From NCBI GenBank assembly GCA_045578245.1, contig JAZNJX010000098.1, positions 1,188 to 65,187 of the forward strand: 64,000 nt of DNA, in the 5' to 3' direction. How positions within the stretch are numbered: position 1 is the first letter of the stretch; each line of letters begins with the position of its first letter. Below, one piece after another: positions 27,247-54,998 of this stretch. The stretch comes from Candidatus Fimenecus sp. Its GTDB lineage: Bacteria; Bacillota; Clostridia; Oscillospirales; Acutalibacteraceae. Below the pieces are notes generated by a model that made no database searches, was not told the origin of the DNA, and saw only the letters and a program-made list of their open reading frames with translations. Both the position numbers and the translations under genes were made by a program.

Positions 27247-28437
27247 TTAAACGGATAATTTTTTCATTTCTTCCTGTAAATCTTTGATTTCAAAATGCTC
27301 ATAATAATTTACGGTAGTTGAATAATCTTCGTGTCCCATAATTTCTTGTAATACTTCAGCCTTCATACCCGACTTGGAAGCAAGTGAAGCGAAAGTGTGT
27401 CTTGTGCTATAAGGTGTTAATCTTGGTGGATGCTCTTTTGAAAACTTTTCTTCACCTTCAGGCAGTTCCAGTATACCTAATTCCAATAGTAATGGATAAA
27501 AGTTTCTTGAACGAAAATTTTTCAAATCATATTTCTTTCCTTTTGAATTTGAAATCAGCGGAGAATTTAGTTCAACAACTTTTTTGCTACGAGCTTCTTT
27601 ATACCATTGTTCAATATATGGTCTGATGAAAGGATGTATAGGAACTTTGCGATTCATTCCTGCTTCTGTTTTGCTACCACCAACAATATACCCTTCTTCA
27701 AGATTTACATTATCAGTGGTTACAGCAAAAAGTTCGTTAGGCCTGAACCCGGTGTAAATAAAAGTTAAAATAATTCTTGCAGTTTCCTCTTTATCATTAT
27801 CTTTTAAAAGTTTTATTTCTTCATCGGTGAAAATAGACTTTTCTTTTTGCTGTGCTTTGGGTAACACAAGGAACTGGGCATAGTTTTTATTAAGCAGGTC
27901 ATATTCCATAGCTTTTTTACAAAGCTGGCTACAAAGTTGTTTTACTTTGTCACACTGGTCTCTTGAATATTTTTCTGCACAAAGGTCAATGCATTCTTGA
28001 AAGTGCACTGTGCGTAATTCTCTAACTTTCATATTTGCAATTGATTGCAAATATTTCCATGCAGTTTTATATCCCTGCTCACCTGATGCAGATAATTCTC
28101 TGAAATGAACATCTGACCATTCGCCATAAAGTTTTTGTAGAGTATATGTATTTCTATCACTGATACCATTTATCTGTGCCTCAAGGATTGCTTTTTTCGC
28201 CTCAGTTTCCGTTGCAAAAGAACCGATGAATATTCGCTTTTTATTAACAGTAATTGAAGCTGACCACGGCCGTGACTTTCTTCCCTTTTGTTTATAGATG
28301 CTTCCCTCACCGTTTGCTCTTTTTTTAGAACGCGGGTCTGCAATTTGTTTTCTGCCACACCATTGACAGAATAGAGCATCATCGGGAATTTCCTTTTTAC
28401 ACTTTTTGCAAAGCATTATATCACTCCTTTTGGGCAT
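27247..28437 (-). CDS. int: tyrosine-type site-specific integrase with N-terminal zinc ribbon
   Basis: 396 aa. CKKCKKEIPDDALFCQWCG at the N-terminus. C-terminal RHTFASL...GHEDYSTTVNYYEH catalytic region. Confidence 0.9.
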   Translation of the reverse strand: MPKRSDIMLCKKCKKEIPDDALFCQWCGRKQIADPRSKKRANGEGSIYKQKGRKSRPWSASITVNKKRIFIGSFATETEAKKAILEAQINGISDRNTYTLQKLYGEWSDVHFRELSASGEQGYKTAWKYLQSIANMKVRELRTVHFQECIDLCAEKYSRDQCDKVKQLCSQLCKKAMEYDLLNKNYAQFLVLPKAQQKEKSIFTDEEIKLLKDNDKEETARIILTFIYTGFRPNELFAVTTDNVNLEEGYIVGGSKTEAGMNRKVPIHPFIRPYIEQWYKEARSKKVVELNSPLISNSKGKKYDLKNFRSRNFYPLLLELGILELPEGEEKFSKEHPPRLTPYSTRHTFASLASKSGMKAEVLQEIMGHEDYSTTVNYYEHFEIKDLQEEMKKLSV

Positions 28438-28571
28438 AAAAATGCCCGAGACTTGATTTTTCAGTCCGGGTGTGATACAATATAACCGCTTTGGAGAGCC
28501 GGTTTGTTTGTATCACACTCAGACCGTATATGAACCGTTCATCTGCGCCAAAAGATGGGCGGTTTTTATTT

Positions 28572-29555
28572 TTAAATCCAATTTTGCATATATGAACTAC
28601 AAATTTCATCGATAGTCATTGAATAATCATAATACTCAAAACTATCCTTTTTAGGCCTAAAGACATAGCCTTTTTCTTTCTTTTTATATAAATCTTGCAA
28701 TTTGCTATCAATACAAGTATCAAAACATGAATATGGTGCAGGATTTGTATAAAATTTACTGTTTTTTGCTTTTTCTAAAAATTCCATTGCTTCATCTAAT
28801 TTGTTTTGCTTTCTTAAACAGGTTGCTATTTCGACATATCCAGCAGGTAATTGTGGTTGTAGTTCAATTGATTTTTTATAAAAACTTATTGCTTTTTCAA
28901 AATCATGACACTGTTCATACAGAGAACCTAGAGAAGTGTTAATACTATTAAAGAAAACAGCGTTTTCATTTAATTCAAAGCATTTTTCATAATGATGAAT
29001 AGCTAATATACGATATTTAGCACCCCAAAATTCGTAGATGCGAGCACATTCCCATTGAGATGCAAAATTGTTGATATCGTAGCAATCCTTTAAAATTTTA
29101 CATTGTTGCTCTGTTTCCGTTCTGCGAAGTTTTTTATATTCTTCAGCGGTAAATGGTGGACCGTGTCCAATAATATCATCAAATGATGAATTAACAGAAA
29201 CAGATACTTCAAGAGGAAGTTCGATAGTTTCTTCTGCAATAACTTCTTGTTCAATCGATTCAGCAGGAATTTGAATTATTTTATTGTTATTCGTTTCTAA
29301 TGTTGTTTGTATTATCTTATTCTTTTCTTGTTTATCTTTTTTCTCATTTTCTCGTTCTTGTTTAAGCTTTTCAGCATTCCTTTCCATTTCAGCGGACTTT
29401 TCCTTTATATATTTTTTTATTGCGGGAAAAACATCATACTGCAAAAAGGGGATAAAGGTATCAACAATCCAATTAAATAGTAACGGAATAAGTTGACACA
29501 ATATCCAGATAGGTAATGCTATTGGAAAAAAAAGAATAAATAAAAATGTCTTCAT
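28572..29555 (-). CDS. membrane-anchored coiled-coil/TPR-repeat protein (lysogeny-module cargo)
   Basis: N-terminal hydrophobic segment, a K/E-rich coiled coil and C-terminal TPR-like helices (AISFYKKSIELQPQLPAGYVEIATCLRKQNKLDEAMEFLEKA). Confidence 0.6.
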   Translation of the reverse strand: MKTFLFILFFPIALPIWILCQLIPLLFNWIVDTFIPFLQYDVFPAIKKYIKEKSAEMERNAEKLKQERENEKKDKQEKNKIIQTTLETNNNKIIQIPAESIEQEVIAEETIELPLEVSVSVNSSFDDIIGHGPPFTAEEYKKLRRTETEQQCKILKDCYDINNFASQWECARIYEFWGAKYRILAIHHYEKCFELNENAVFFNSINTSLGSLYEQCHDFEKAISFYKKSIELQPQLPAGYVEIATCLRKQNKLDEAMEFLEKAKNSKFYTNPAPYSCFDTCIDSKLQDLYKKKEKGYVFRPKKDSFEYYDYSMTIDEICSSYMQNWI

Positions 29556-29568
29556 ACTTTAACCGACC

Positions 29569-30189
29569 TTAAAACTTTGCTCTTAATTCGACTACCTTTC
29601 CAAGAATTTGGACAGGTAGTTTTTCTATTTGTTCATTTGTATAGGTCATAACATCGTAAGCGGGGTTGCTTGGAATAAGATTTATACCGCCGTTGAATTT
29701 CTGTACCTTTTTAATTGTAGCTTCGTCACCGTTTACAAGAACAATAGCAATCTCTCCGTTCTCAACATCTGGCTGTTTGCGAACTATAACAACATCACCA
29801 TCGCTGATTTTAGGCTCCATACTGTCACCCTTAATCTGCAAACCAAAGAATTCGCCCTGATGTGCCATATCCTCACTAATTTCTTCATAATCAATTATGT
29901 ATTCAACTGCATCCATTGGAATACCAGCACGAACTAAACCGAGAACGGGAACCTTGACAGCGGATTTTTTACTGAAATCTTTTCTATATGAATCATAACC
30001 AGCTATTACACCAGGTGTAATTTTTAAAATTTGGGACAACAATGCGATTTTATCTCGACCCATATTTGCAATATTACCTGATTCCCACCGTGAAACAGTT
30101 GCTTCACTTACTCCAACATAGTCTGCGACCTGCTTCATTGTCAATTTTAGTTCTTTTCTTCTGCTTCGAAGCAACTCATTTGTATTCAC
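29569..30189 (-). CDS. CI/LexA-like repressor (XRE HTH + S24 peptidase domain)
   Basis: HTH LTMKQVADYVGVSEATVSRWESG, with GDSMEP and the downstream K of the S24 autoprotease. GTG 30189 preferred, since the first GTG (30198) lies inside the SD AAGAGGTG. Confidence 0.85.
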   Translation of the reverse strand: MNTNELLRSRRKELKLTMKQVADYVGVSEATVSRWESGNIANMGRDKIALLSQILKITPGVIAGYDSYRKDFSKKSAVKVPVLGLVRAGIPMDAVEYIIDYEEISEDMAHQGEFFGLQIKGDSMEPKISDGDVVIVRKQPDVENGEIAIVLVNGDEATIKKVQKFNGGINLIPSNPAYDVMTYTNEQIEKLPVQILGKVVELRAKF

Positions 30190-30221
30190 TTTTTTCACCT
30201 CTTATTATGTATTGTAATCGT

Positions 30222-30318: not shown

Positions 30319-30352
30319 TAACTTACGGAAACGCAAGAAAGAGGTGAAAAGA

Positions 30353-30571
30353 ATGAAAGTAGGCGAGTTTAGACCTGAATTATTGGAATCTGAAATGGTA
30401 AAGAAAAAAATGAATCCAGAATCTTTATCAAACGAATTAGGCATTAATCCAAGTACATATTACCGAAAGATTAATGGCGAGAGCGAATTTAATCGTCAAG
30501 AAATGGCTATTATTAGATATGTATTAGGTCTATCTAGTGATGATATGGATTCTATTTTTTTTGCTTCGTAA
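30353..30571 (+). CDS. Cro-like small HTH regulator
   Basis: 72 aa. SLSNELGINPSTYYRKINGE HTH; divergent from the repressor; ATG 30353 follows GAGGTG. Confidence 0.7.
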   Translation: MKVGEFRPELLESEMVKKKMNPESLSNELGINPSTYYRKINGESEFNRQEMAIIRYVLGLSSDDMDSIFFAS

Positions 30572-30595
30572 CTTACGGAAACGCAAGAAACCGCA

Positions 30596-31245: not shown

Positions 31246-31454
31246 TACCGCATTCAAAAAAATATGCCGGATGCACAGCCAAAATTCAAACCTTAAGAAA
31301 CGGAAGAGTCACGTTAACTGTTTATGATAAGGAAATGAAGATGGTTCTGCATAGGGAATGTGAGTCTAAAGAAGATGCTAAACGTCTTCTACAGCTCAGC
31401 GGTCAGCAGTTCCAAAAGGTGCAGGAAACAATAATTTATGTAGTAAAGGAGTGA
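31224..31454 (+). CDS. hypothetical protein
   Basis: 76-aa ORF contiguous with its neighbours; start uncertain. Confidence 0.45.
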   Translation: MDRKGNVIPHSKKYAGCTAKIQTLRNGRVTLTVYDKEMKMVLHRECESKEDAKRLLQLSGQQFQKVQETIIYVVKE

Positions 31455-31867
31455 AAGGGACAATGCGTTTTATTATTATATTGCTTGTAGGTTTACTCTT
31501 TGGTGTGCCTCTAATATATGGATATACCAAAGAAGATGAAATTAAAGCATGGGAACAACGAACCAAAATAAAGTTGTTTCGCTACGTATACAACAAAATA
31601 GTTGCTTATGAGAATCGGCGAGATATGAAAAAGTCAGGTGTCAAGCCACAAGATGTAACAAGTGCTTTATTTGAAGATGCTTATCATTATTATGATGGCT
31701 ACAAAACAGTTAAAAACTTTATAGGTAATGAAGACCATGAGTTAGTCGCAGGTGTAAGAAATAAGTGTTTTGCCTGCTTTAGGGTTATCAAAGACAGTGG
31801 TTTAGGCGACCTGTTTTTGGAATTCGTTGAAAAGAAGCAAAAAAATAACCGTGTCAGCGGGAACTAA
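31451..31867 (+). CDS. hypothetical membrane-anchored protein
   Basis: 138 aa with an N-terminal TM (FIIILLVGLLFGVPLIYGY). Confidence 0.55.
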   Translation: MKGTMRFIIILLVGLLFGVPLIYGYTKEDEIKAWEQRTKIKLFRYVYNKIVAYENRRDMKKSGVKPQDVTSALFEDAYHYYDGYKTVKNFIGNEDHELVAGVRNKCFACFRVIKDSGLGDLFLEFVEKKQKNNRVSGN

Positions 31868-31924: not shown

Positions 31925-31970
31925 ACAAATTTGTCAAATAAAAAACGCATCAGCGGAAAGAAGGAAGATT

Positions 31971-32899: not shown

Positions 32900-34569
32900 G
32901 TGGAAGAAATGACTGACACAAATTCAAAACAATATATTATGGATAACCTTCCTGAGCTTACAGACGAAGACTATCAAGAAATAAACGCCTTATTTCCTGC
33001 GTATCTGTTTTTCAAAGATGACAGAAAAGAAGAACATTTTGAGTGTTATTGTAGTGCTTGTAGAGAGCAATTTAATTATGATTACACCCAAAGAACAGAA
33101 ACACAACAACATTATGATTTTTTGCAGATTCAGCATAATCAAAAAATTGCTTGCCCTAAATGCGGTAAGTTTGTTATTGCTAAAGAAATATGTAAAGCAA
33201 AACAGTGTATTTCATTAAAATCGTGGAGAAGAACTGTAGTTATTAAGCGAATCAGCGAAAGTGAAGTGTATCTCATAAGTTATGAGTGCAAAAAAGATTA
33301 CTCATATAAACACTATCTTACAAAACCACATTGTTATTTAACTGCAGTATATATTTTAAAACCGGAACAGGTAAGAATCATACTGAGAAATTGGTACAAC
33401 GACTGGGAAAATCCAAAAATAATTGAACCATTTTTCAACGGATATGGCAGCAATACAACAAATATGGAAGAGCGAAAGTATAGGTTACTTGGTCAAGATA
33501 GGTTAAAAGACACGTTTTTAAAATATGCTCCAATTAAACTCTTCCACGAAACATATATTAGATGGTATTACGGAGTACATGCAGGATATTATTTGGCGGC
33601 GGATTCAGGATATGTGCCATTTACTAAATTTTTATGTTACTACACATTATACCCAAGTACCGAAAAACTTTTGAAAATTGATTTGGGTGGTTTTGTATGT
33701 CAGTTGATAGATGGTAAACCGATGAAAAGATACATTAATTGGAACGCGGAAAAGCCACAAGAAATGTTCAAAATGAATAGAGTACAGTTCAAAGATTTCA
33801 GAGAACATTATTCTGGTGAAATGGATTTTAAAGTGTATCAAAACTTAAAAAAAGTAAAAAGCAATATTTCATATTCTTATGTTGCCGAGATAGTAAAAAA
33901 ATACAGAGGAGTTTCTGTGGAACGTGTGTCTGTGATGGTAAAAAGTACAAGCTTAATGTTACACGAACCTTTAATTATCTTGAAAAAATTGTTTCTTCAG
34001 AAATTGCAAAGATGTGTAAACCGCTATATACAGCTCAGGTATATGAAAATATAGCAATTCAGTGGGTTGATTATTTAACTTTTGCTAAAGAGTTAAAGTA
34101 TGATTTGACTCGTGATGATGTTATTTACCCAAAGAATTTAATTGAAGCCCATGACCAAGCAAACGCCAATCTTACTGTTAAAAGAGATGAAAAGGCTTTT
34201 GAGCAGTATAAGAAAAGATATGAAACATTAAAGAAAAAATATGAGTTCTCTGATGATACATATCAAATTGTTATACCTACTGGAGTAAACGACATTATAG
34301 AAGAAGGGCAAAAACTTTTTCATTGCGTTAAGGGTTATGCAGAAAGACATATGAAAGGTGAAACTACTATTTTGTTTATGCGTGAGTGTTGTCTTCATAA
34401 TGCTCGTCTTATAACAATTGAAATTAAGGATAAAACGATTGTTCAAAATCGTGGTATGGCCAATCGACCACCAACAAAACAAGAGCAAGCCTTTATTGAT
34501 AAATGGATTGCGTGGGTTCAGGCAGGTAGCAAACGACCTAAAAAGAAAAAGACCGCATCAGCGGCATAA
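32900..34569 (+). pseudogene. PcfJ-like protein interrupted by a frameshift (ORFs 32900-34054 and 34012-34569)
   Basis: The C-terminal ORF carries EEGQKLFHCVKGYAERHMKGETTILFMR...IVQNRGMANRPPT (PcfJ-like core). The downstream frame is open from 33820, so the shift lies in 33820-34054. A-runs occur at 33895-33901 and 33940-33944. Confidence 0.55.
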
Positions 34570-34581: not shown

Positions 34582-35622
34582 ATGAGTGACATTATAAATA
34601 TTGAAGCAAAAGATGTGACAGAAGTATATGAAGATGCTTTGCAGACACATCAACGTATTATGGCAAACAGTGAAATTTGTGCACGTTCTCTTCTTGAGGT
34701 GTGCAAGGACCTTAAAAAGATGCGAGATGAAAAGCTGTATGAACAGTTCGGATATGAAACATTTGATAACTACTGCGAAAACATGGCAGGCATCAAATCT
34801 CGTATGGCATATAACTACATATCTACATTTGAACGTCTTGGTGCTACAGTTTTGCAATCAAATGCAAATCTCGGTATTACAAAGCTTGAACTTATAGCCG
34901 GGATGAATCCTGTGGAACGTGCTGAAGGTCTTCATGACGGTACCTTTGAGGGTATGTCAGTTTCTGAAATTAAAGAGTTAGTTAAAAAGAACAAAGAAAT
35001 GGGAGAACAGATTGACCTTCTTAAAGAACAACTTGAAGAAATACAGTCAACGGACAATGTATCAGAAGATTGTAATGAGTCAGCGGATGAAGATACCGAA
35101 AAGGAAGATTTAAAGCGAAAGAACGAAGAACTTATTAAAATTCTTCACGAAAAAGATAGTCAACATGAAAAAGAGCTTAATTCTATGCGTGAAAAAATTG
35201 AGGACGAGCTTCGTGAAGAGATTGAAAAAGAATATCAGCAGGTAGTTGATGAGGTAACAGATACCGCAGAAATGAATGCTGATGTTCAAAAGCAGATTGA
35301 TGCAGCTGTTGCTAATGCTAAAAAGGAAACCGAGAAAGAGTTGAAGGCAAAGTATTCTGAAAAGGATAAAAAGCAGAAAGAAAAAATCAAGGAACTTGAA
35401 GAAGCTATGTCTGTTGCAGATGCTGACAAAAAGACACTTGAAAAGCAGTTGGCTTTGTCCGATACAACTTCTGCAAAGGCTATGGTGTATATCCAGTCCA
35501 TTCAGGATAACTTTAACTCTCTCTTTAATCTTATATCTGAAATGGACGAAGAGCAGCAGAACAAGTTCAAGGGTGCAGTTGTTAAACTCACCAATGTCAT
35601 GCAGGAAAAAGCAGAGTCTTGA
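34582..35622 (+). CDS. DUF3102-like N-terminal domain / long acidic coiled-coil protein
   Basis: 346 aa. N-terminal LLEVCKDLKKMRDEKLYEQFGYETFDNYCENMAGIKSRMAYNYISTFERLG, then E/K-rich coiled coil. Confidence 0.45.
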   Translation: MSDIINIEAKDVTEVYEDALQTHQRIMANSEICARSLLEVCKDLKKMRDEKLYEQFGYETFDNYCENMAGIKSRMAYNYISTFERLGATVLQSNANLGITKLELIAGMNPVERAEGLHDGTFEGMSVSEIKELVKKNKEMGEQIDLLKEQLEEIQSTDNVSEDCNESADEDTEKEDLKRKNEELIKILHEKDSQHEKELNSMREKIEDELREEIEKEYQQVVDEVTDTAEMNADVQKQIDAAVANAKKETEKELKAKYSEKDKKQKEKIKELEEAMSVADADKKTLEKQLALSDTTSAKAMVYIQSIQDNFNSLFNLISEMDEEQQNKFKGAVVKLTNVMQEKAES

Positions 35623-37961: not shown

Positions 37962-38369
37962 ATGAATTCTTTTGAAAATAGTCAGGTCAAAGTCATGTCA
38001 GGGGGATTTATATCTACCTTACAGAGTGTAAAGGAACAAATTAATTTCAAATACTTGGTGAGAGAATTTGAAAAAGACGAAATAAAACAGATAATCGAGT
38101 TCTGCAATATTATGGCAGATGTTCTTACTCTTCCACCCAAAGCTCTGATAGTTATTGGCAAAGAGCAAAGGTATGCAGCAAATGTTCAGGAAGTTTATAA
38201 ACTGCTTGATGAAAGACATATTGAAACAGTGCTTGAGAATTTCAACAACATAGCATATAAAATCAAAAACCCAAAAACATATCTCCGCACTGCATTGTAT
38301 AATTCATTCTTTGAGATTGAAAACAAAAGTGCAAATGAAACAAACGTGAGGATTGCAGAAAATGATTAA
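37962..38369 (+). CDS. hypothetical protein (possible replication accessory protein)
   Basis: ATG 37962 follows AGGAG. The C-terminal IKNPKTYLRTALYNSF resembles DnaD-like C-terminal motifs (weak). Confidence 0.45.
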   Translation: MNSFENSQVKVMSGGFISTLQSVKEQINFKYLVREFEKDEIKQIIEFCNIMADVLTLPPKALIVIGKEQRYAANVQEVYKLLDERHIETVLENFNNIAYKIKNPKTYLRTALYNSFFEIENKSANETNVRIAEND

Positions 38370-39273
38370 AGAGAAAATCACCAAAGCCGGTAAGCTTTTA
38401 AATACAGACTTTTATCCTTGTTTTGATAACGGCCGAAAAATACCAACAGGACCTGCTAAAGCTCAAGGTTCAACCGAGGCACAGAAAAAATATAACGATA
38501 ACCAAGCACAAAAGAATGCAATTTATCTTATAAACGAGAACTTTGACGAACACGACCTTATCGGGCATCTTACCTATGCTCCTGAGCATGCTCCACAGAG
38601 TGAAAATGAAGCAAGACGTGACATGGTTAACGCTCTTCGCAGAATCAAAAGGATGCGCGAAAGAGAATCAATCAAAGTCGTTGCTGCCTTGAAGAAACTT
38701 CCTGATGTAGAAGAATTTACAGAGATGAGAAAAAAACTTGAACTTAAAAGAGAAAAACTCTCTGCACCGTTTAAGTACATGTACGTTATTGAAAAGGTTA
38801 CATATCAACGTGGCCCATTCAAGGGTAATGATAACTGGCATTTTCATATCTTCATGACAGGTGGATTGGAGCGTTCAGAAGTTGAGACAATATGGAAAAA
38901 AGGCATCCGTTCAAATGTTGACCAATTCCAGCCTGACAGATTCGGTCCAGAAGCTATGGCTAAGTATATGGCAAAAGACCCACAGGGAACAAAGCGTTTT
39001 GTGTGTTCTCGTAATATGAGTCGTACATATAAGCAACCAAAAGTCAAAAACGCAAGATTTTCAGCGGGATACCTTGCAAAACTCTCACAAGAGAGATGTG
39101 ATGATAAGCAGTATTGGGAGAAGAAATATCCCGGATACAACTTCGTTCGTGCGTTTCCACGTTTCAACGAGTATAACGGTCATTGGTATTTGACTGTGGT
39201 GATGTATGCTGCAGGTGATGGTCCTGTTCCGAAGTGGGATATGGATAACTGGGTCAATGATGACTGGGAGTAA
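38353..39273 (+). CDS. HUH-superfamily rolling-circle replication initiator (Rep)-like protein
   Basis: Three ordered motifs: GHLTYA (motif 1), NWHFHIFMTG (HUH) and AMAKYMAKD (catalytic Y..K). Confidence 0.5.
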   Translation: MQKMIKEKITKAGKLLNTDFYPCFDNGRKIPTGPAKAQGSTEAQKKYNDNQAQKNAIYLINENFDEHDLIGHLTYAPEHAPQSENEARRDMVNALRRIKRMRERESIKVVAALKKLPDVEEFTEMRKKLELKREKLSAPFKYMYVIEKVTYQRGPFKGNDNWHFHIFMTGGLERSEVETIWKKGIRSNVDQFQPDRFGPEAMAKYMAKDPQGTKRFVCSRNMSRTYKQPKVKNARFSAGYLAKLSQERCDDKQYWEKKYPGYNFVRAFPRFNEYNGHWYLTVVMYAAGDGPVPKWDMDNWVNDDWE

Positions 39274-39309
39274 TAATTTATAACAATTCAGCGGAAAGGT
39301 TAAAGCATT

Positions 39310-39485: not shown

Positions 39486-39878
39486 TTGACTTTAGAAAGA
39501 CTTAACAAACTGCGTGATGAACTAATTGCGTTGAGAAATGAAAAAGAAGAGTGTGAAATAAAAGCGGATAGCATACCAGGAGGACAATTCAACGGTATGC
39601 CTTCCGCTAAAAGTTCTGGTAATAGCAAAGAACAAAGATATATTTCTTTAATTCATGACAAAGAAACAATTCTTGAGGTGAAGTGTAAAAGAATTGAATT
39701 GAAGTACGCTGAAGAAATTAAGTACATAGCAAACATAAACGATGAAACATTACACAGAATTTTCATGTATCGCTTCCTTTATGGATGGGAATATAAAAGA
39801 GTAGCAGAAAAGATAAGTGAAAAAATGTCAGCGGATAGTGTCAGGATGCACGTAACAAGATATTTAAAAAATAATTAA
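39486..39878 (+). CDS. late-gene transcriptional regulator, sigma-70 region-4-like (RinA/ArpU/DUF1492 type)
   Basis: C-terminal RIFMYRFLYGWEYKRVAEKISEKMSADSVRMHVTRYLK HTH. Lies immediately upstream of terS. Confidence 0.5.
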   Translation: MTLERLNKLRDELIALRNEKEECEIKADSIPGGQFNGMPSAKSSGNSKEQRYISLIHDKETILEVKCKRIELKYAEEIKYIANINDETLHRIFMYRFLYGWEYKRVAEKISEKMSADSVRMHVTRYLKNN

Positions 39879-39913: not shown

Positions 39914-39945
39914 ATAAAATAGAAGATAAAAAGATATTGATTTTC

Positions 39946-39975
39946 AAGCACTCTGCAAAGGGTGCTTTTATTTTG
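39946..39975 (+). terminator. terminator-like hairpin in the late-operon leader
   Basis: aagcactc tgcaaa gggtgctt followed by ttattttg; 22 nt upstream of the terS start. Confidence 0.45.
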
Positions 39976-39996
39976 CAAAAAAAGGAGGGAATATCC

Positions 39997-43281: not shown

Positions 43282-45148
43282 AGAACTTGCTGAAATCTTT
43301 GAAAAGATAGAATTAGAGATAATATCGTCCTTAAAAAGGAACTTAAAGAAACACCAAGAATGGGAAAAGGACCTTGATATTGAGTGGACTGCTTGGCAGG
43401 CATTAAAAATTAAAGGTATTGAGAGATTCCGAAAAGAAAACAGTGAAATTCTTTCACAATACACAGACCTTATATCAGCGGAAACCCGTAAGATGATTGA
43501 AGAACAGTTTGATGAAGGTGAAGACCTTGAAGCAGAACAGTTATCAGAATACGGTTTTACTGAAACAACAAACGATAATTTCTTTGAAATCTTTGATGAG
43601 AAGATTGAAAGTATTATTGAAGAAATACAGGGTAAAGAAACAACAGCGGAAAAAGCTGCTTTGCGAATGATGGATGATGTTTACCGTCAGACTCTCTTAA
43701 AAGCTGAAACTGCAGTTGCAACAGGCTCACAGACTATACCAAAGGCAATTGAGGAAGCAGTAAGAGAATTTGCAAAGAAGGGTATAAACTGTATTGAGTA
43801 CCGTGACGGCCGTAGAGTGAATATTGCTGATTATGTTTATATGGCTCTTCGTACTGCTAACACCAGAGCAAACTTATTAGGTCAAGCAAAGCAAAGAATG
43901 GCATTGGGAATTGACACCGTGCGTGTAAGCTCCTATAATGCGTGTTCTGAAACTTGCTTACCTTGGCAGGGTGGAATCTATATTGATGATGTTTTTGCTA
44001 CATTTGATGGTGAAATCAGCGGTGATAAGGGTAAAAGTAACAATGGCAAGTGGTACACTCTTCTGTCAGTCGCAGTCAGGGCAGGGCTGTTTCATCCAAA
44101 TTGCCGTCATAGTCTTACTACATACACCGGGAACGGCAAGGACTCTCCAATTGTTGATGAAGAAAAAGCAAGAGAGAATTATAAACTCGAACAGCAGCAG
44201 AGAACGTTAGAACGAAAACTGCGTTATTGGAAGCGCCGTCTTGAAGCAGAGAGCGACCCTGTATTAAAAGAAGGCTTGAAAAATCAAGTTAAAAAGGCTC
44301 GTGATAATCTTAAAAGCTTTGTTGATGAGCACAAGGAAGTTCTTCGCCGTGACCCATGGAGAGAAAAGACATACGATACTCCTGAAAGCACACGGAAACG
44401 GAATCCTAACGAAAAGCAATTTTTACGGTATCGTGAAAGACTTGGAGAAAAAGTTCCTCAAACACTTGCTGAATTTGAAAAGATTAAATATGGCAGTAAT
44501 GAAGAGTGGATTAAACTTCAAACGGAATATAGATATAAGGGTGTTGTGGACCGCCTTTTAGCTAAAAATCCAAATCTCAAAGTATTCTCAAAGGCTTCAG
44601 AAATACCTGACGAGTATAATAAAGCGGCAAGATTACTTACTTATAATCAAAGAGATGGTATTTATCATTATACGCACTATGAAGAGGGTATAAGGATGAA
44701 TAAATATCTTGGTGGTGACCCTGAAACTGTATTGTCAGCGGATGAGATGAGAAATCTTCAAAATACGCAAGATGCATTGGAAAATAGTTCGTTACCTTAT
44801 GACACAGTCCTTTGGCGAGGAACAGAAGCATGGTTGCTTGATGGTTTTGATGATTTGCCACATTCCATAAAGGATTGGAAAAAGGGACGATTATCGTATA
44901 AGGGATTTTCTTCAACAAGTATTATTAGAGATGCATCCTATATCAATTTATCAGACAAGGATGTACAACTTATATTAGTTAAAAAAGGAAATCAAAATGG
45001 AGCGGCTTATGTAGAAAAAATTTCATATAATTATTTCAATAATCTTAAATCAGAGCAAGAAGTACTATTGCAAAATCATGTAGAATTGAGTATAATAGAA
45101 GCACAGAGATTTAAAGGTAAAACAATAATTGTAGCGGAGGTGTTATAA
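43271..45148 (+). CDS. head morphogenesis protein (SPP1 gp7/Mu F family) fused to a C-terminal C3-like ADP-ribosyltransferase domain
   Basis: gp7-type region (LRTANTRANLLGQAK...HPNCRHSL). The C-terminal ~190 aa carry the R-S-E triad: VLWRGT, GFSSTS and SEQEVLL. Confidence 0.75.
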   Translation: MTSKELAEIFEKIELEIISSLKRNLKKHQEWEKDLDIEWTAWQALKIKGIERFRKENSEILSQYTDLISAETRKMIEEQFDEGEDLEAEQLSEYGFTETTNDNFFEIFDEKIESIIEEIQGKETTAEKAALRMMDDVYRQTLLKAETAVATGSQTIPKAIEEAVREFAKKGINCIEYRDGRRVNIADYVYMALRTANTRANLLGQAKQRMALGIDTVRVSSYNACSETCLPWQGGIYIDDVFATFDGEISGDKGKSNNGKWYTLLSVAVRAGLFHPNCRHSLTTYTGNGKDSPIVDEEKARENYKLEQQQRTLERKLRYWKRRLEAESDPVLKEGLKNQVKKARDNLKSFVDEHKEVLRRDPWREKTYDTPESTRKRNPNEKQFLRYRERLGEKVPQTLAEFEKIKYGSNEEWIKLQTEYRYKGVVDRLLAKNPNLKVFSKASEIPDEYNKAARLLTYNQRDGIYHYTHYEEGIRMNKYLGGDPETVLSADEMRNLQNTQDALENSSLPYDTVLWRGTEAWLLDGFDDLPHSIKDWKKGRLSYKGFSSTSIIRDASYINLSDKDVQLILVKKGNQNGAAYVEKISYNYFNNLKSEQEVLLQNHVELSIIEAQRFKGKTIIVAEVL

Positions 45149-46128: not shown

Positions 46129-47013
46129 ATGCCAGGAAACACAGTAAACTATGCTATTCAGTTTGCACCTGATATTATGCAGAAGTACACTCGTGAACTT
46201 CTCTCATCAGACCTTACAACACAGAACATCAATTTTGTTCGTGCAAACGAAATTAAAATTCCATTTGTAACAATGTCTGGTTACAAGGACCACAGCAGAA
46301 ATGGCGGTTTCAACGAAGGTACAGTTGAAAACGACAATATGACAAAGAAACTCGGTTTTGACCGTGATATTGAATTCTTTGTTGATTCAATGGATGTGGA
46401 TGAGACAAATTACGCACTTTCAGCGGCAAACATCACAAACACATTCATTACAGAAAAAGCAATTCCTGAAACAGACTGTTATCGTTTCTCAAAACTTTAT
46501 ACAGATTTGGTAACTCTCGGCGGAATTGCTTCACAGGAGGCTGTTACAGCAGCAAACATTCTTGATTGGCTTGATACCATGATGGAAGAAATGGATGACG
46601 ACGAGGTTCCAGCAGAAGGCAGAATCTTATATCTCATCCCAAGCAGATACAAACTCATCAAACAGGCAGAAAAAATTCTTCGTAACCTTGATGTTACAAG
46701 AAGTGCAACCGTAAATCGTAACATCACAAATCTTGATGATGTTATTATCAAGAAAATTCCAAGTGCAAGAATGAAAACTGCTTATAACTTTACTGATGGC
46801 TATGCTCCTGCAACAACTGCAAAGCAGATGGATATGATTCTCGTTCATCCAAAATCAGTCCTTGCAACTGATAAGCATGCTTATATCAAGCTTTGGGCTC
46901 CAGGTACACATACAAAGGGCGATGGTTATCTTTATCAGAACCGTAAATACGGTGACTTGTTCGTTGTTGATAACCGTATGGAAGGTATCAAAATCAATCT
47001 TTCAGCAGAATAA
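46129..47013 (+). CDS. major capsid protein
   Basis: 294 aa with a strong RBS AAGGAGG; position after the scaffold gene. Confidence 0.7.
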   Translation: MPGNTVNYAIQFAPDIMQKYTRELLSSDLTTQNINFVRANEIKIPFVTMSGYKDHSRNGGFNEGTVENDNMTKKLGFDRDIEFFVDSMDVDETNYALSAANITNTFITEKAIPETDCYRFSKLYTDLVTLGGIASQEAVTAANILDWLDTMMEEMDDDEVPAEGRILYLIPSRYKLIKQAEKILRNLDVTRSATVNRNITNLDDVIIKKIPSARMKTAYNFTDGYAPATTAKQMDMILVHPKSVLATDKHAYIKLWAPGTHTKGDGYLYQNRKYGDLFVVDNRMEGIKINLSAE

Positions 47014-47673: not shown

Positions 47674-48009
47674 ATGCAATATCCTAAGCTGGTACCACCA
47701 AGATTATGTCATACTGAAGTCAAAGTAAAATTCCTTGGTGATTTGGATGTCGAAGGTGCTGAAGAAATCCTTTGTGAGTTCAGCGGAAAGTGTAATATCA
47801 AAATTAAAACAAAGCAACGGCTTACAGCGGATAAACGCCTTGTGACCATAAATGCTGTTGCTTTGTTTGATGGGGATATTGCTCCTGATATATCAAATCC
47901 AAAAGGAACACTTGAACTGAATGCTAAAGAATATCATATTTACAGTATTGCGAAAGAACTTAATCCGGATGGAACTGTGAATTACACACGATTGGAGTTG
48001 ACAGAATGA
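47674..48009 (+). CDS. head closure/adaptor protein
   Basis: Size and position in the neck module. Confidence 0.4.
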   Translation: MQYPKLVPPRLCHTEVKVKFLGDLDVEGAEEILCEFSGKCNIKIKTKQRLTADKRLVTINAVALFDGDIAPDISNPKGTLELNAKEYHIYSIAKELNPDGTVNYTRLELTE

Positions 48010-50061: not shown

Positions 50062-52584
50062 GTGTCAGAAAAAGACAGTGCTGGTATAGTTTCTCTTGAC
50101 CTGGTTATCGAAGATACTGCGGAAAAGCAAATTGAAAAGATTGCAAAATCAGCGGTTAAACCTGCACAAAAGCATTTTTCTAATGTAGGTAAGACTATTG
50201 AAAATGCTATAACAAAACAAACCTCAAAAATACATAAATCTATTGAGAAAAATATCAATTCCGTCAAAGAACCAAAGAGTTTTAAGGTTGCAAACGATGC
50301 AATCGGTCTTATGGAACAGAAACTCGGTAATATAGGTTCACAGATGGGTAGCGTTAGCGAGAAAATCGCAAAGGTTGAGTCTCAATATGAAAAATTAGGT
50401 AAGGAAAAAGGCTTTGATGACGAAGATGTTATCAAACTTGAAAATGAACTTACTTCATTACAAGCAAAACTTATCTCTTTGCAATCGACTGCAAATTCAA
50501 CAGAAGATAAATTAAATAAAGCACTTTCAGGACCAGCCCAAAAAGCACAGCAGGCATATCAAAAAGCCTATGATGATATCGTCAATCGTGCTGCAAATGC
50601 TTCAAAGCAGGCCGAACAATGGGCATTAAAGGCAGAACGTGCTCATAGTAAATCAGCATCACGTGCAGCAAAGCACGCTGTGGCTGCTTATAACAAGCAA
50701 GCGAAGGCAGCGAGAACCTATGCAAACAAATATGCCGATGCACAATCCGATGCAAACGACAAATCCATAAAGGCTGTTGAACGAGCCTATAAGAAAATGG
50801 AAAGCACAGCGAAGAAGTGTGCCAATGCATCTTCAAATGCTATGCACAAAATGGCGAAAGATTCGTCAAAGAGTACATCCGGCATGGGCAGGGCTTTCCA
50901 TAAACTTGGTAAGACAATTAAAGGCTCTCTAAAAGCTGTTTTCGTTACAGCAGTGTTATATAAATTCTTTAAAGCATTTAAGGATAATATAACTGGAGCC
51001 TTGGGCCAAAACAAGCAGTTCGCTAAGTCTCTTAATGAGATAAAAGCAAATCTGTCGGTAGCCTTTACACCAATCATTGAAGCAATAATGCCGATGATTA
51101 CCCGTCTTGCGCAAGGCTTGGCCACAATCACAAAATATATTGCTACATTTATTGCTGCAATATTTGGAAAAACTTATAAGCAGGCTGTAAATTCTACAAA
51201 GAAGATGCAGGCTCAGGCTGAAAAAGCCAAGGCAAGTACAAGCCGTGATTTCGATGAGTTACATAATGTTGATGAAGATAGTGGAAGTGGTTCCGATGGT
51301 TCATCAATAAATTATGATGCTCTTGATACAAGTCAGCTTGATACAGGTCCAATGAAAAAGTTTCAAGAGATTCTTGATAAGGTCAAGGATACTATTGAAA
51401 AGGTATCTCCTGCTTTCAAAAATCTTTATGAAAAAGGTATTAAACCCATCATTGACTGGTTAGGCGGAAAAGTAAAAGATGCATTTGCATTTTTAGGCAA
51501 ACAGCTTGAAAAAGTTGGGAACTGGTTTGTTGATAATAAAGACAGAATATCAAAATTTGGTGACTCTCTTGGTAAACTGTGGGGTTGGTTGGAACCTATT
51601 CTTGATGCAGCGTGGGAGACACTAAAAAATACTCTTGGTAATTTATTTGATGGCTTCCTTGTTGGATGTAGTACCGCATTAGATGTAGCATCAGGTATTA
51701 TTGACCTAATAGTTTCTCTTTTCACAGGTGACTGGGAAGGTGTTAAACAAGCAGGCGAAGACATTATCAATGGTTTGTGGGAAGGCATCAAAAAGAGTTG
51801 GGAAAACACAAAGAAATATCTTACCGACTTGTGGAACGGAATTATCGATACTGTTAAGGCTATTTTCGGTATTCATTCTCCATCAACCGTTTTCTCTGAT
51901 ATCGGTAAAAATATTATTGAGGGTCTTAAAAACGGTATTATCGCTATTTGGGAAACTCTTACATCAGTGGTTAAGGAAAAACTTGATAAACTCAAGACAA
52001 CCTTTACTGAAAAACTCACTAATGCCAAAGATTCCGCAATTAACAAGTTTGCTGAAATTAAAGACGGAATTAAGGAAAAATTATCAGGAATATGGACTGA
52101 TTTCAAAGAGTTTATCAATAAACTTCTTGGTGGCATAGAAAATATGCTTAACAAGCCTATAACAGCAATCAACAAGTTAATTGATAAATTGAACTCTCTG
52201 AAGGTGAAAATGCCTGAAATACTTGGTGGTGGAGAGATAGGGTTCAATATTAGCAGATTCTCAAAAATTTCCATCCCACGTCTTGCAAAAGGTGGTATTG
52301 TTGATAAACCTACACTTTCTCTTATAGGTGAAGCTGGTAAGGAAGCAGTTGTTCCACTTCAAAATAATACAGAATGGATGGAAAAGCTTGTTACAATGCT
52401 TGCTAATGCCCTTGTGAGTGTTTTAGCACCAATGATGATGCGTAATCCTACACAGGAAGTACAAGATGATTTAGAGAAAGTTATAAACATCAATGTTGAC
52501 GGTAGAACTGCATTCTCAATACTTTTAAATTTATTTAAAAAGTATGCAAGTGATGCCGATTTGAGATTAATTACAGGAGGTTAA
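50062..52584 (+). CDS. tape measure protein
   Basis: 840 aa, long alpha-helical A/K-rich protein with central hydrophobic segments; GTG start after AGGAGGTG. Confidence 0.85.
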   Translation: MSEKDSAGIVSLDLVIEDTAEKQIEKIAKSAVKPAQKHFSNVGKTIENAITKQTSKIHKSIEKNINSVKEPKSFKVANDAIGLMEQKLGNIGSQMGSVSEKIAKVESQYEKLGKEKGFDDEDVIKLENELTSLQAKLISLQSTANSTEDKLNKALSGPAQKAQQAYQKAYDDIVNRAANASKQAEQWALKAERAHSKSASRAAKHAVAAYNKQAKAARTYANKYADAQSDANDKSIKAVERAYKKMESTAKKCANASSNAMHKMAKDSSKSTSGMGRAFHKLGKTIKGSLKAVFVTAVLYKFFKAFKDNITGALGQNKQFAKSLNEIKANLSVAFTPIIEAIMPMITRLAQGLATITKYIATFIAAIFGKTYKQAVNSTKKMQAQAEKAKASTSRDFDELHNVDEDSGSGSDGSSINYDALDTSQLDTGPMKKFQEILDKVKDTIEKVSPAFKNLYEKGIKPIIDWLGGKVKDAFAFLGKQLEKVGNWFVDNKDRISKFGDSLGKLWGWLEPILDAAWETLKNTLGNLFDGFLVGCSTALDVASGIIDLIVSLFTGDWEGVKQAGEDIINGLWEGIKKSWENTKKYLTDLWNGIIDTVKAIFGIHSPSTVFSDIGKNIIEGLKNGIIAIWETLTSVVKEKLDKLKTTFTEKLTNAKDSAINKFAEIKDGIKEKLSGIWTDFKEFINKLLGGIENMLNKPITAINKLIDKLNSLKVKMPEILGGGEIGFNISRFSKISIPRLAKGGIVDKPTLSLIGEAGKEAVVPLQNNTEWMEKLVTMLANALVSVLAPMMMRNPTQEVQDDLEKVININVDGRTAFSILLNLFKKYASDADLRLITGG

Positions 52585-52585
52585 C

Positions 52586-52948
52586 GTGGAAACATTACTT
52601 AAAACAATAAACGGATGGACTCCACCTTCTCTTGTAAAGTGTAATCCAATCCGTATAACTCAGGTTAAAAGTGAAACAGATTCCGTTGGTAATCTGCAGA
52701 TTAAAAAGATTTTATCAGTTAAGATGAAATTTGAATTAGAATGGCAATTTATATCAAAGAGTACAGCTCAGCGGATAATGAAAGAATTGTCAGACTTTAA
52801 CGCTCTGGTGACTTATGAAGATATTGTAACAGGTGCAACAAAATCAGGAAGATTTTATCCCGGCGATTTTCAACCTGTTCCGTCTTTGACATATAAAAAC
52901 GGTGAAATGCTTTACAAGTCTTTTCCTCTTAACATAATCGAAAAATAA
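52586..52948 (+). CDS. small tail protein in the distal-tail (Dit) position
   Basis: 120 aa; position only. Confidence 0.35.
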   Translation: METLLKTINGWTPPSLVKCNPIRITQVKSETDSVGNLQIKKILSVKMKFELEWQFISKSTAQRIMKELSDFNALVTYEDIVTGATKSGRFYPGDFQPVPSLTYKNGEMLYKSFPLNIIEK

Positions 52949-52961
52949 AGTAGGAGTAGAA

Positions 52962-54998
52962 ATGTATAATACAACACAACTTTATAAAGACCAGGTTAAT
53001 AAGTTACCACAGAAATACATAATGAATCTAAATTGTATCATTGACGGTGGTTTGAGTATCATTTTTCTTGAAACAGAAAATAACGAACCTCTTACCACCG
53101 AGGATGATGAGATACTTGAATTTCCATCGGCTGCACCTGTTGAGATTCTTCCGAATGATATATTTGAAGCTGGTTATTCTGAAAATATGTTTATAAATGC
53201 TTTTTCAATAGGTACAGCTGTAAAACCAAGTATGTGGGTTCGTATCTTCAACAAAGATAGCAAGTTTAGAAATGAATTGTTATCAACAGCAGAGTATAAA
53301 CCAACATTCGCTCTTTTGGATGATGAAGAGAATACAACAGATGTTGTCCCTGTGGGTGTGTTTTATGCAAATAAACTTATAGTTCAGGATACGGATATTC
53401 GTATTGAATTAAGCGATAAGATGGCGTTTATGGAAAAACCGTTTAAACCTCAAGGTGCACCACGTTCCTTATATGAAATTGCTACTGGTATTGCTCTTGA
53501 TGTTTTTGCAACCGTTGTAACCACGCCGGACGAGTTATCTGTTCTCTCTTTAGTGGTAAACGATGATATTTTTAGCGGATATTCCAAAAAGCAGGTACTT
53601 GAATGTATTGCTCAGGTTTGTGGTAGCTTTGTGAGATTTAATCGTGAAGGCAATCTTGAATTCAAATGGTTTATTGAAACAGATGTTAAACTGAATGGAG
53701 ATACTGCAAAAGTTCCTCTTGAACTTAACGGTAATACTTTCTATCTTAATGATAATTCTCTTCGAGTAACAGGAGTAAAAATAGTTTTTGAAGATACTGA
53801 ATTGTGTTCAGTAGGTACCGATGATTATCTGTTGACTATCAGTGAGAATCCTATTACAGAAACACATTCAGCGGAAATCGCAGAGTTTATACTCAACAGA
53901 CTTTCAACCACAAAATACATTCCTTGCCGTTATGACCGAATTGGTGGTGACCCATCGTTACAAGTAGGAGATATTCTTACTGTAGTTGACAATAAGGAAA
54001 AATACATTCCTGAAATGTATGACAGTTATGACAAATATCCACTTTATATCACAAGCTTTAACTGGCATTACAATTGTGGTGGCTTCTCTGATACATACAT
54101 TGCCTCAGGAAACACGGATGATATGGATACCGATAGAGGAATGACCACTTCTAAAAAGACTGCACAATTAGCAAAGAAGATTAAAGAGACCAAAAAAGAT
54201 GTTCTGGATGAGTTAGATTCAAGAGAAAAATTCTTGTTGGCATTTAATCAAACCATTGCAGGTTCTATGGGATATTATATGACCGAATTACCAGGAGAAG
54301 CAGGCGGAGTAGTGCGGTATATGCACGACAAACCTAATCTTGAGGAAAGCAAAGTTATATACACCCAGACTGTTGATGGTTTCGCTTGGACCACAGATGG
54401 ATGGAATGATGGTGAACCACTCTGGAAATATGGTTTTGATAAAAATGGTAATGCGATTTTAAATCAAATCTATGCTTATACACTTACTGCGGATGTAATC
54501 GTTTCAGGACTATTAAAATCTAAAAATGGTGCATCATGGATTAATTTAGATAATGGGACATTTCAGTTTGGAGAAAGTTCTACTTCACCAAAATTAGCAT
54601 TAAATAAGGCAGGTCAACTTCTTATTGACGGTATTTTGAGAAATATTAATTATCCAACACTTTCAGCATCTGTTGGTGAGTCTGAAAATAATACATTTGG
54701 TGCTTTTACAGTTACGGACAATACAAGTGGTTGGGGTGATATTTTTCAAGTTTACAGAGTTGCGAGTGGCAGCGAAAAGGGTGTAACAATAACATCACCT
54801 TTTTTGATTAATGGTGCTAAGACAAATAGAAAAGGAATAACCATTTTGCCTGATGGCATTACAATGTTTAATAATGGTGGAGGTTCAGTAAGAATTGACG
54901 ATACCGAAGGAACGATAATTGATGGATATGCCGTTATTAAAAGATTTGAAAATATTGAAGAGAGAATTGAAGAACTTAGTAACCTTATTAATGGATGA
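52962..54998 (+). CDS. tail-associated (Tal-like / prophage tail endopeptidase family) protein
   Basis: 678 aa; position after TMP and Dit. Confidence 0.5.
   Translation: MYNTTQLYKDQVNKLPQKYIMNLNCIIDGGLSIIFLETENNEPLTTEDDEILEFPSAAPVEILPNDIFEAGYSENMFINAFSIGTAVKPSMWVRIFNKDSKFRNELLSTAEYKPTFALLDDEENTTDVVPVGVFYANKLIVQDTDIRIELSDKMAFMEKPFKPQGAPRSLYEIATGIALDVFATVVTTPDELSVLSLVVNDDIFSGYSKKQVLECIAQVCGSFVRFNREGNLEFKWFIETDVKLNGDTAKVPLELNGNTFYLNDNSLRVTGVKIVFEDTELCSVGTDDYLLTISENPITETHSAEIAEFILNRLSTTKYIPCRYDRIGGDPSLQVGDILTVVDNKEKYIPEMYDSYDKYPLYITSFNWHYNCGGFSDTYIASGNTDDMDTDRGMTTSKKTAQLAKKIKETKKDVLDELDSREKFLLAFNQTIAGSMGYYMTELPGEAGGVVRYMHDKPNLEESKVIYTQTVDGFAWTTDGWNDGEPLWKYGFDKNGNAILNQIYAYTLTADVIVSGLLKSKNGASWINLDNGTFQFGESSTSPKLALNKAGQLLIDGILRNINYPTLSASVGESENNTFGAFTVTDNTSGWGDIFQVYRVASGSEKGVTITSPFLINGAKTNRKGITILPDGITMFNNGGGSVRIDDTEGTIIDGYAVIKRFENIEERIEELSNLING

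Follow-up and report, generated by a model that had tools for sequence, protein, structure and literature searches.

A Prophage in tRNA-Thr and Its One-Strand Heptamer

The DNA considered here, 64,000 nucleotides of contig JAZNJX010000098.1 from Candidatus Fimenecus sp. (referred to as the window), carries a 35.4-kb prophage whose plus strand is studded with the heptamer TCAGCGG, probably a Chi site of the host enzyme AddAB. The left 27 kb are chromosomal and include polC, hisS, dxr, genes for rRNA methyltransferases, and a gene for a dockerin/BspA-LRR protein. The prophage (27058 to 62432, plus strand) is integrated in tRNA-Thr(GGT) (26981 to 27056), which serves as the attachment site, and is bounded by an exact direct repeat of 46 bp made of the 3' end of that tRNA gene (attL, 27012 to 27057; attR, 62387 to 62432). 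The lysogeny genes lie on the minus strand and encode the integrase (27247 to 28437), a TPR protein (28572 to 29555), and a CI-like S24 repressor (29569 to 30198). All early and late genes run rightward on the plus strand. The early ones encode a cro-like repressor, PcfK- and PcfJ-like proteins, a protein of 346 amino acids, a DUF6017 protein, and an HUH-type replication initiation protein, Rep (38353 to 39273). The late ones encode the small and large terminase subunits, terS (39937 to 40479) and terL (40476 to 41801), presumed to be the region of pac and the packaging start, followed by an SPP1-type portal, minor head protein, major capsid protein, tape measure, tail proteins, and endolysin.

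Exact counting finds TCAGCGG 25 times on the plus strand of the window and not once on the minus strand (CCGCTGA, 0). Two copies are in host DNA and 23 in the prophage, where the strand lock has a P of 1.2e-7. An earlier reading of this DNA, made by eye and without database searches (the sequence-only reading), had listed 23 prophage copies, two host copies, and four ACAGCGG variants, and counting reproduces every coordinate. It also bears out the claimed lack of minus-strand copies, since even CCGCTG is missing from the plus strand. Shorter words follow suit, with CAGCGG at 30:0 and AGCGG at 40:4 (plus to minus, as for all counts below). TCAGCGG is the top 7-mer of the prophage by a wide margin, CAGCGG is the top 6-mer, and TCAGCGGA is the top 8-mer. 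Markov models of orders 0 to 2 expect 0.6 to 1.05 copies per strand in the prophage, an enrichment of 22- to 38-fold (Poisson P ~1e-22); the hand estimate had been a 20-fold excess over about one expected copy. Density is about 0.65 sites/kb across the prophage and 0.85/kb over 27.0 to 54.0 kb.

Where do the copies lie? On the left, three run antisense to lysogeny genes, one to the integrase gene (27555 to 27561) and two to the TPR gene (29143 to 29149 and 29389 to 29395), and an ACAGCGG variant (29957 to 29963) is antisense to the repressor gene. In the early region, one copy falls outside the main tabulated open reading frames (ORFs) (31396 to 31402), one within the ORF at 31451 to 31867 (31854 to 31860, frame gTC-AGC-GGg), and one between genes (31950 to 31956). 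Two more are at the 3' end of the PcfJ-like ORF (34558 to 34564, TCA-GCG-GCA) and in the ORF of the 346-amino-acid ParB-like/coiled-coil protein (35080 to 35086, TCA-GCG-GAT). The Rep gene holds a copy (39061 to 39067), the intergenic DNA directly past it another (39288 to 39294), and the ORF at 39486 to 39878, immediately upstream of terS, a third (39828 to 39834). Both terL (41125 to 41131 and 41493 to 41499) and the portal gene (42280 to 42286 and 42904 to 42910) have two. The minor head gene has three (43475 to 43481, 44016 to 44022, and 44735 to 44741) plus an ACAGCGG (43643 to 43649), and the major capsid gene has one (46420 to 46426). The ORF at 47674 to 48009 combines a copy (47780 to 47786, tTC-AGC-GGa) with an ACAGCGG (47824 to 47830). 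Single copies follow in the tape-measure gene (50149 to 50155), in the ORF at 52586 to 52948 (52768 to 52774, gcT-CAG-CGG), and in the tail gene at 52962 to 54998, where the final one occurs (53868 to 53874). The last ACAGCGG (56244 to 56250) is in the ORF at 55032 to 57044. All of these sites are on the plus strand, as are the two copies in host DNA, at 16556 to 16562 (same orientation as the host genes) and 19923 to 19929.

The distribution is uneven. Ten of the 23 prophage copies fall within 39.06 to 44.74 kb (P = 0.002); the sequence-only reading had counted eleven at 39.0 to 44.8 kb, which is reached only with the ACAGCGG at 43643, but the clustering itself stands. It was right that nothing lies beyond 53.9 kb: the last 8.5 kb (53.9 to 62.4 kb), with tail-fiber, lysis, and accessory genes, have no copy (P = 0.002). 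Its claim that the word is confined to the prophage holds only as a matter of density. The word is far denser there, but the host flank in the window has two copies where 0.5 would be expected, and enrichment is seen in related host genomes as well (described below).

Is it the protein or the DNA that is under selection? Seventeen of the 23 prophage copies are inside plus-strand genes, 12 of them read as TCA-GCG-Gnn, four as nTC-AGC-GGn, and one as nnT-CAG-CGG. The remaining six are divided equally between DNA outside the main ORFs and the antisense strand of the integrase and TPR genes. Among Ser-Ala-(Gnn) tripeptides in the rightward genes, 12 of 17 (71%) are written TCA-GCG-G, compared with 2.2% expected from codon usage outside the motif (P = 6e-17). 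GCG is a rare codon, and one-fifth of its occurrences (12 of 57) fall within the motif. Because of this excess in Ser-Ala spelling, and because of the intergenic and antisense copies, selection acts on the DNA word and not on the protein; the phage writes the word wherever the protein permits. The sequence-only reading had also placed the signal at the DNA level, from copies in three frames, between genes, and antisense, all of them correctly described.

That the array is an artifact of composition, codon usage, amino acid repeats, or a dispersed repeat has next to no probability. Such an origin would suit the 12 genic sites that share the single frame TCA-GCG-G (Ser-Ala). However, Markov models up to order 3 predict at most 1.6 copies, codon usage predicts the observed spelling at 2% rather than 71%, and copies also occur antisense, outside ORFs, and in other frames. 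The sequence around the copies is likewise unrelated, the sole bias being an A right after the motif in 14 of 25 copies; with no common flanks beyond this one base, a dispersed repeat or mobile miniature element was rejected. Promoter or terminator elements were rejected too, the sites being within genes in all frames as well as antisense to the lysogeny genes.

Related Phages and Host Chromosomes

Related prophages and phage contigs were reached via portal homologues in metagenome-assembled genomes (MAGs) and metagenomes (L numbers denote the retrieved loci). When 20 kb of the prophage were compared with GenBank phages by megablast, no match came up, and a 31-nucleotide att/tRNA-Thr pattern had none in viral contigs. 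Scanning IMG/VR with a single portal protein yielded no relative either, a task that needs an alignment-based scan. In relatives with 73 to 89% portal identity and a G+C content (GC) of 0.36 to 0.39, and in L184, reached through an early gene, TCAGCGG is again the top 7-mer and strictly on one strand (L082, 18:0; L083, 19:0; L084, 13:0; L086, 14:0; L088, 13:0; L184, 8:0). The L084 array sits in a prophage remnant within a MAG of the Fimenecus clade. The seven phage genomes from this low-GC host clade, including the window, give a pooled count of 108:0. The motif is thus found in related prophages, where the sequence-only reading had suggested looking for it, and it has been gained there repeatedly and independently.

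An alignment of the syntenic region from terS to the tape measure shows that few sites are fixed. Those at terL offsets +649 (41125) and +1017 (41493) and one in the portal gene (42280) are kept in all six aligned TCAGCGG-type genomes, and the intergenic copy past Rep (39288) is kept in L082, L086, and L088. Many aligned sites are present in one or two lineages only, and at these the other genomes show one-step neighbors such as tcagcag, tcaacgg, tcagtgg, and ccagctg. For example, the portal copy at 42904 is tcagctg in L083 and L084, and the capsid copy at 46420 is a synonymous tcagcag or tcagctg in relatives. The minor head copies at 44016 (tcaacgg or tcagtgg in relatives) and 44735 are found in the window only, and the ACAGCGG at 43643 is TCAGCGG in L082. 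Since lineage-specific sites face one-step neighbor words in other genomes, the pattern is, as judged from the aligned sequences, one of continuing gain under selection and not of inheritance alone. Over six genomes, density is highest in the 2 kb before and the 2 kb after the terL start, at 1.5 to 1.8/kb, compared with ~0.6/kb elsewhere.

What happens in relatives from other hosts? In L090 to L093 (69% portal identity, GC 0.47 to 0.49), TCAGCGG is lost and (C)GAAGCGG appears in other alignment columns, with 16 to 25 copies on the plus strand versus 0 to 2 on the minus strand. The window-type sites of these phages are tcacagg (as at the column of 41125) or tcggcag. CGAAGCGG occurs at 24-35:0-1 in L090, L091, L185, and L229, and CGCAGCGG at 10:0 in L094 (64% portal identity, GC 0.40), which has GCAGCGG in the column of the window copy at 52768. 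A scan with the 346-amino-acid protein added phages with GAAGCGG (35:0), GGAGCGG (19:0), CGAGCGG (19:0), CAGCGGC (20:1), GAGCGGC (18:1), and GAGCGGG (15:0), along with ~30 human-gut contigs with GCAGCGG (5-13:0-2); nearly all members of the GCAGCGG phage group are motif positive. Among 163 phage loci of at least 10 kb, 34 have a top 7-mer with P of 1e-8 or less, and in 21 of these 34 it contains or overlaps AGCGG, a core contained in ~0.3% of random 7-mers. At least eight flank variants keep this core, nearly always on one strand.

Could a phage-encoded protein shared across this phage family (Rep, DUF6017, the small terminase, or another) read the sites for replication, packaging, or genome organization, their resemblance to Chi being coincidental? 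This is unlikely, though several observations lean toward it: sites are much more closely spaced in the phage than in host DNA, density peaks beside Rep, terS, and terL, Rep and DUF6017 are common to most motif-bearing relatives, and the strand-locked motifs of some relatives lack AGCGG. Motif and early genes do not travel together, however. The early region of L084, covered from the repressor to terS, is without PcfJ, PcfK, and the 346-amino-acid protein, yet this phage has its TCAGCGG array (13:0), and L093 and L094 share all three proteins with the window yet carry GAAGCGG and CGCAGCGG, respectively. No tracking was found between motif presence and either the 346-amino-acid protein or PcfJ/PcfK; motif type follows base composition, and hence presumably the host, and not the mosaic of early modules. 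At least eight flank variants, spread over different phages, hold the exact AGCGG core of known AddAB Chi sites. Moreover, terminase and Rep binding sites normally form local clusters, not ~1 site per kb over 27 kb of coding sequence, and the host chromosome of the clade is enriched and skewed for the word while outgroups are not.

This host signal was measured as follows. A polC scan of species-representative genomes points to Candidatus Fimenecus and close relatives as the host, with polC up to 98% identical; the matches in the Fimenecus clade are Acutalibacteraceae/Oscillospirales MAGs from the ruminant hindgut. The sample is the polC neighborhood, ~24 kb in each of 78 species. Orthologous loci are redundant, and a pooled k-mer ranking was swamped by conserved coding words, so words were compared with their composition-matched permutations and sites were deduplicated. 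Where polC is at least 70% identical (1.1 Mb), TCAGCGG stands at 139:31 and CAGCGG at 294:79. The low-GC members (GC < 0.40) of the Fimenecus clade give 79:15 and 160:24 (polC-sense strand first), and the closest polC group gives 33:4 and 72:8. Other genera (polC < 70%) give 20:22 and 159:119. In the clade, CAGCGG is first for strand skew among composition-matched permutations (47 ranked) and sixth of 60 by count, and by count TCAGCGG takes eighth place among 420; in the outgroup genera they come 14th of 60 and 196th of 420, which is no signal. The gene-rich host strand is enriched ~3- to 5-fold, with the 7-mer at ~0.1/kb (versus ~0.02 expected) and the 6-mer at ~0.2 to 0.27/kb, in a sample of about 60 species. 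Enrichment and skew as counted in these neighborhoods are compatible with Chi and fall short of proof. In one host sub-clade (polC loci L029 to L032 and L055; polC ~76% identical, GC 0.38), bare AGCGG is itself extremely skewed, at 16 to 19 on the plus strand versus 1 to 5 on the minus strand, and the host signal may be AGCGG or CAGCGG instead of the full heptamer. A metagenome scan with the GH38 gene of the L084 host flank returned mostly human-gut organisms, 52 to 54% identical and without signal, and is uninformative for Fimenecus.

The host chromosome also bears on restriction-modification, of which the array might be a footprint, through the one-orientation immunity of Type III enzymes or as a methylation target. 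The word is short and asymmetric and its reverse complement is wholly absent, in which it resembles the sites of the Type III enzyme EcoP15I, reportedly all in one orientation in phage T7, and some relatives encode DNA methyltransferases. Such an origin is nevertheless very improbable indeed. Unlike the present array, the T7 case needs avoidance only. Avoiding one orientation predicts neither a 22- to 38-fold excess nor the creation of sites via a rare GCG codon and lineage-specific point changes, and a Type III orientation bias was rejected on this account. The window phage has no recognizable methyltransferase, and the host chromosome is enriched on one strand, not depleted.

The Predicted AddAB Chi Site

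The reading that we favor, with a probability of about 0.75, is that TCAGCGG, with the core (C)AGCGG, is the AddAB Chi of the host, Candidatus Fimenecus, accumulated by a phage that has no detectable recombination module of its own. We infer both AddAB as the reader and a physiological benefit. To our knowledge, AddAB is near-universal in Firmicutes. The heptamer is TC plus AGCGG, the core of the experimentally defined AddAB Chi, and it ends in that core just as GAAGCGG does, the S. aureus Chi that relatives of the phage carry. The Chi of B. subtilis AddAB, AGCGG, is bound by AddB on the 3'-terminated strand (PMC4824097), and GAAGCGG protects rolling-circle DNA in S. aureus (PMC5959072; bioRxiv 10.1101/2021.07.08.451572). 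The sequence-only reading had named both sequences, in agreement with the literature (PMC4824097, PMC5959072). Its proposal of a host AddAB/RexAB Chi, accumulated to protect phage DNA and acting on an enzyme that comes in from the right, finds support in the DNA-level signal, the conservation of the motif, the host-linked switching around an AGCGG core, the host enrichment and skew, which outgroups lack, the absence of a detectable recombinase or inhibitor, and the clustering at the packaging region. The Chi of S. aureus is 89.7% co-oriented with replication, and the host word is likewise skewed to the gene-rich, presumed leading strand, in one neighborhood. That of Lactococcus and streptococci is GCGCGTG (PMC4824097; table 3 of PMC5959072, which cites Halpern et al. 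2007).

Does the phage have recombination genes? Searches of the early ORFs with Pfam, PHROGs, and NCBIfam revealed no recombinase, exonuclease, SSB (a protein that binds single-stranded DNA), or Gam/Abc2-like inhibitor, and PDB sequence searches of two early proteins returned nothing, which upholds the earlier remark that no Gam-like inhibitor or recombinase is recognizable. The AlphaFold model of the 346-amino-acid protein (pLDDT 75) is all-helical, with a weakly ParB/Spo0J-like helix-turn-helix domain at the N terminus and then a long coiled coil; as the modeled fold does not look like that of a recombinase, this candidate was rejected. More distant structural relatives encode PolA, a PD-(D/E)XK exonuclease, and an SSB, or else an SSB, RusA, and DnaB, and they have no standout strand-locked word. 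The sample is small, and it points in the same direction as the lambdoid phages (PMC3784561, PMC12315714).

How might the sites work? AddAB would load at a free double-strand end and degrade both strands until its AddB scanner met 5'-Chi-3' on the 3'-ended strand, whereupon degradation of that strand would be attenuated, leaving a recombinogenic 3' tail. The 3'-ended strand is where the enzyme has to meet Chi for it to act (PMC4824097). Because all copies are on the plus strand, their target would be an enzyme that enters at an end to their right and moves leftward. SPP1 and P22 begin packaging within or close to terS and proceed from terS to terL, and SPP1 injects first the end that it packaged last. 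A pac phage of the SPP1/P22 kind would package from terS through terL to the portal gene (the direction assumed here). The left-facing ends would be the side of the pac cut that stays unpackaged and, in each permuted headful molecule, the end packaged last and injected first. Such ends would come to lie at pac and to its right, the part with the densest sites, and the region farthest from entry would be the one with no sites. Concatemers and injected DNA would be protected, and circularization or concatemer formation, dependent on RecA, could rely on host enzymes. Most sites arose where a synonymous codon that spells the word was chosen or where point mutation turned a near-cognate word into it. 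That the uniform orientation is the active one we infer from the assumed rightward packaging.

The hijacking of Chi by phages without recombination genes has been described before, in E. coli, Pseudomonas, and P1, and the present case is an extension with no new principle. Host Chi is the most frequent or over-represented oligomer in the phages LLS (23 sites) and MD8 (32 sites, all top strand), while it ranks only 43rd in abundance among octamers in P. aeruginosa (PMC12315714, PMC3784561). Here, too, provided that the word is the host Chi, the candidate tops the phage oligomers and is far less prominent in the host, sites gather near the presumed nuclease entry end, no recombination module or nuclease inhibitor was detected, and near-cognate words point to ongoing gain and loss. 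Unlike the window phage, LLS and MD8 are cos-type lambdoids of RecBCD hosts with an experimentally defined 8-mer Chi; the phage described here is pac-type, a siphophage that encodes an HUH Rep and resides in an uncultured Clostridium, its AddAB reader is presumed and its Chi predicted, and across its relatives the flanks of the motif vary from host to host.

Phage P1, a case considered together with its relatives, has 50 Chi sites, which crowd around the headful ends downstream of pac (Subramaniam & Smith, bioRxiv 10.1101/2021.07.08.451572), at 2 to 3 times the density of its host. It is likewise a pac/headful phage that circularizes terminally redundant DNA by host recombination, with Chi densest where packaged ends fall. 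Its sites, in contrast to the prophage copies with their single orientation, occur in both orientations, each facing the nearer end, and its enzyme is RecBCD. A further comparison is with the short, strand-skewed chromosomal words read by FtsK and SpoIIIE, the FtsK-orienting polar sequences and SpoIIIE recognition sequences (PMC3384302). The known motifs are G-rich 7- to 8-mers unrelated to AGCGG, the ~8-fold phage excess is not predicted by such a role, and the phage has no translocase gene; this identity was rejected.

Several points weigh against an AddAB Chi. (i) AddAB is presumed in this host, and the assignment as Chi is a prediction. (ii) The host signal is that of one chromosomal neighborhood, at ~1/8 of the phage density, and it becomes weaker, though still present, when orthologous sites are collapsed (TCAGCGG, 34 distinct plus versus 16 minus sites, rank 15 of 420; CAGCGG, 93 versus 50). 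(iii) About 10 early ORFs of unknown function remain, among which a recombinase or inhibitor could be hidden. (iv) There are no minus-strand sites, so that an enzyme entering from the left end meets no Chi. (v) Some arrays in relatives lack AGCGG, namely (G)ACGGCAA(G) at 18-24:1-3 (ACGGCAA, 24:2), CCGGAGG at 19:0, and AACGGTC at 16:1; CCCGATG (7-8:0) is a further strand-locked word of this kind in the same structural phage family. The phages concerned are L143 to L182 (IMG/VR, GC ~0.46), L224, L243, and L139 to L141. Their arrays may represent other Chi classes, or they may be driven by an agent other than AddAB, and they show that AGCGG is not involved in every such array. More specifically, ACGGCAAG, CCGGAGG, and AACGGTC could be Chi sites whose specificity belongs to classes not yet described, or could be read by another nuclease, one of end processing or defense. 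(vi) If the HUH Rep nicks the plus strand, as in phiX174, the sigma tail would need Chi on the minus strand, and protection of rolling-circle tails does not fit simply. The link to rolling-circle ends is the weakest part of the earlier interpretation.

Rep does raise one more alternative, in which the copies would signal priming, or initiation of the lagging strand, on the strand that Rep-driven rolling-circle replication displaces, and a primase or primosome would read them as single-stranded DNA. The strict one-strand motif, the presence of an HUH Rep, and the location of the motif on the Rep-sense strand would all agree with this, as would the host bias to the leading-strand sequence, which also suits signals on the lagging-strand template. 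It is still highly unlikely, in that known primase recognition sites are trinucleotides, no primase was found encoded in the phage, and neither the AGCGG core shared with AddAB Chi nor the peak at the packaging genes would be explained. In addition, L091 has GAAGCGG at 24:0, and the 8.4 kb upstream of its portal gene contain no Rep.

What would an AddAB Chi in this phage add? Experimentally known Chi sites come from a handful of bacteria, and none was found for Clostridia. Limited literature searches brought up no report of Chi-rich one-strand arrays for Firmicutes phages, and a search for the heptamer returned primer sequences only. What appears to be new is the AddAB-type host, an uncultured gut Clostridium, the predicted Chi (T)CAGCGG, and related phages that seem to change the flanks from host to host with AGCGG kept. 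If correct, (T)CAGCGG is the Chi of Candidatus Fimenecus, a directly testable prediction, and Chi hijacking by phages without recombination genes, known from RecBCD hosts, extends to gut-microbiome hosts with AddAB. The relatives (TCAGCGG, CGAAGCGG, CGCAGCGG, GGAGCGG, CGAGCGG, and others) would form a natural series for the change in AddB recognition between hosts. It is an evenly balanced question whether temperate phages of gut Clostridia, where they have no recombination genes, generally carry dense one-strand arrays with an AGCGG core and host-tuned flanks. If they do, phage and prophage sequences could reveal the Chi of hundreds of uncultured AddAB-bearing bacteria, and the arrays could be used to assign phages to hosts from sequence alone and to trace the evolution of AddB specificity.

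Further Elements of the Phages

Other repeated words were noted in these genomes. L079 and L080, whose Rep is 70% identical to that of the window, both have GTGGCGG at 5:0 besides two to four TCAGCGG, and GTGGCGG may be a second strand-locked word. In L100, a prophage of Anaeromassilibacillus senegalensis, the overlapping 8-mers CACGCCCC, CCACGCCC, and CCCCGTAA each occur at 6:0. This suggests a word of ~12 nucleotides, near CACGCCCCGTAA, in six one-strand repeats, possibly iterons near the Rep gene.

A second conserved element is an 18-bp imperfect palindrome, TTTGCAATC-N-AATGCAAA, with five sites in the prophage (28034 to 28051, 34851 to 34868, 40505 to 40522, 50478 to 50495, and 60055 to 60072) versus 0.2 expected by chance. 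It is also found in L082 to L088, L093, L094, and L184, with positions kept at terL start +29 and in the tape-measure gene. One copy is inside the gene for the 346-amino-acid protein and inside its homologues in L093, L094, and L184. Because this protein models as a ParB/Spo0J-like helix-turn-helix plus coiled coil, the palindromes could be parS-like sites.

The remaining observations concern individual genes. An exact 22-bp direct repeat, TAACTTACGGAAACGCAAGAAA, at 30319 to 30340 and 30569 to 30590 (250 bp apart), lies in the divergent repressor/cro-like region and looks operator-like. The PcfJ-like gene is broken into two overlapping ORFs in different frames (32900 to 34054 and 34012 to 34569), which match residues 10 to 368 and 385 to 559 of the intact 559-amino-acid homologue of L093; judging by this match, the split is a frameshift, be it of a pseudogene, a sequencing error, or programmed. 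The early region of L086 (2260 to 3860) has a pair resembling a diversity-generating retroelement, bAvd and a reverse transcriptase. Finally, the SPP1-gp7-like minor head gene (43271 to 45148) has exchangeable toxin-type C-terminal domains in its last ~90 amino acids, which are ADP-ribosyltransferase-like in the window, L088, and L090 to L093 and of the Toxin-deaminase family PF14424 in L082, L083, L086, and L094; the swap suggests a cassette for an injected effector.

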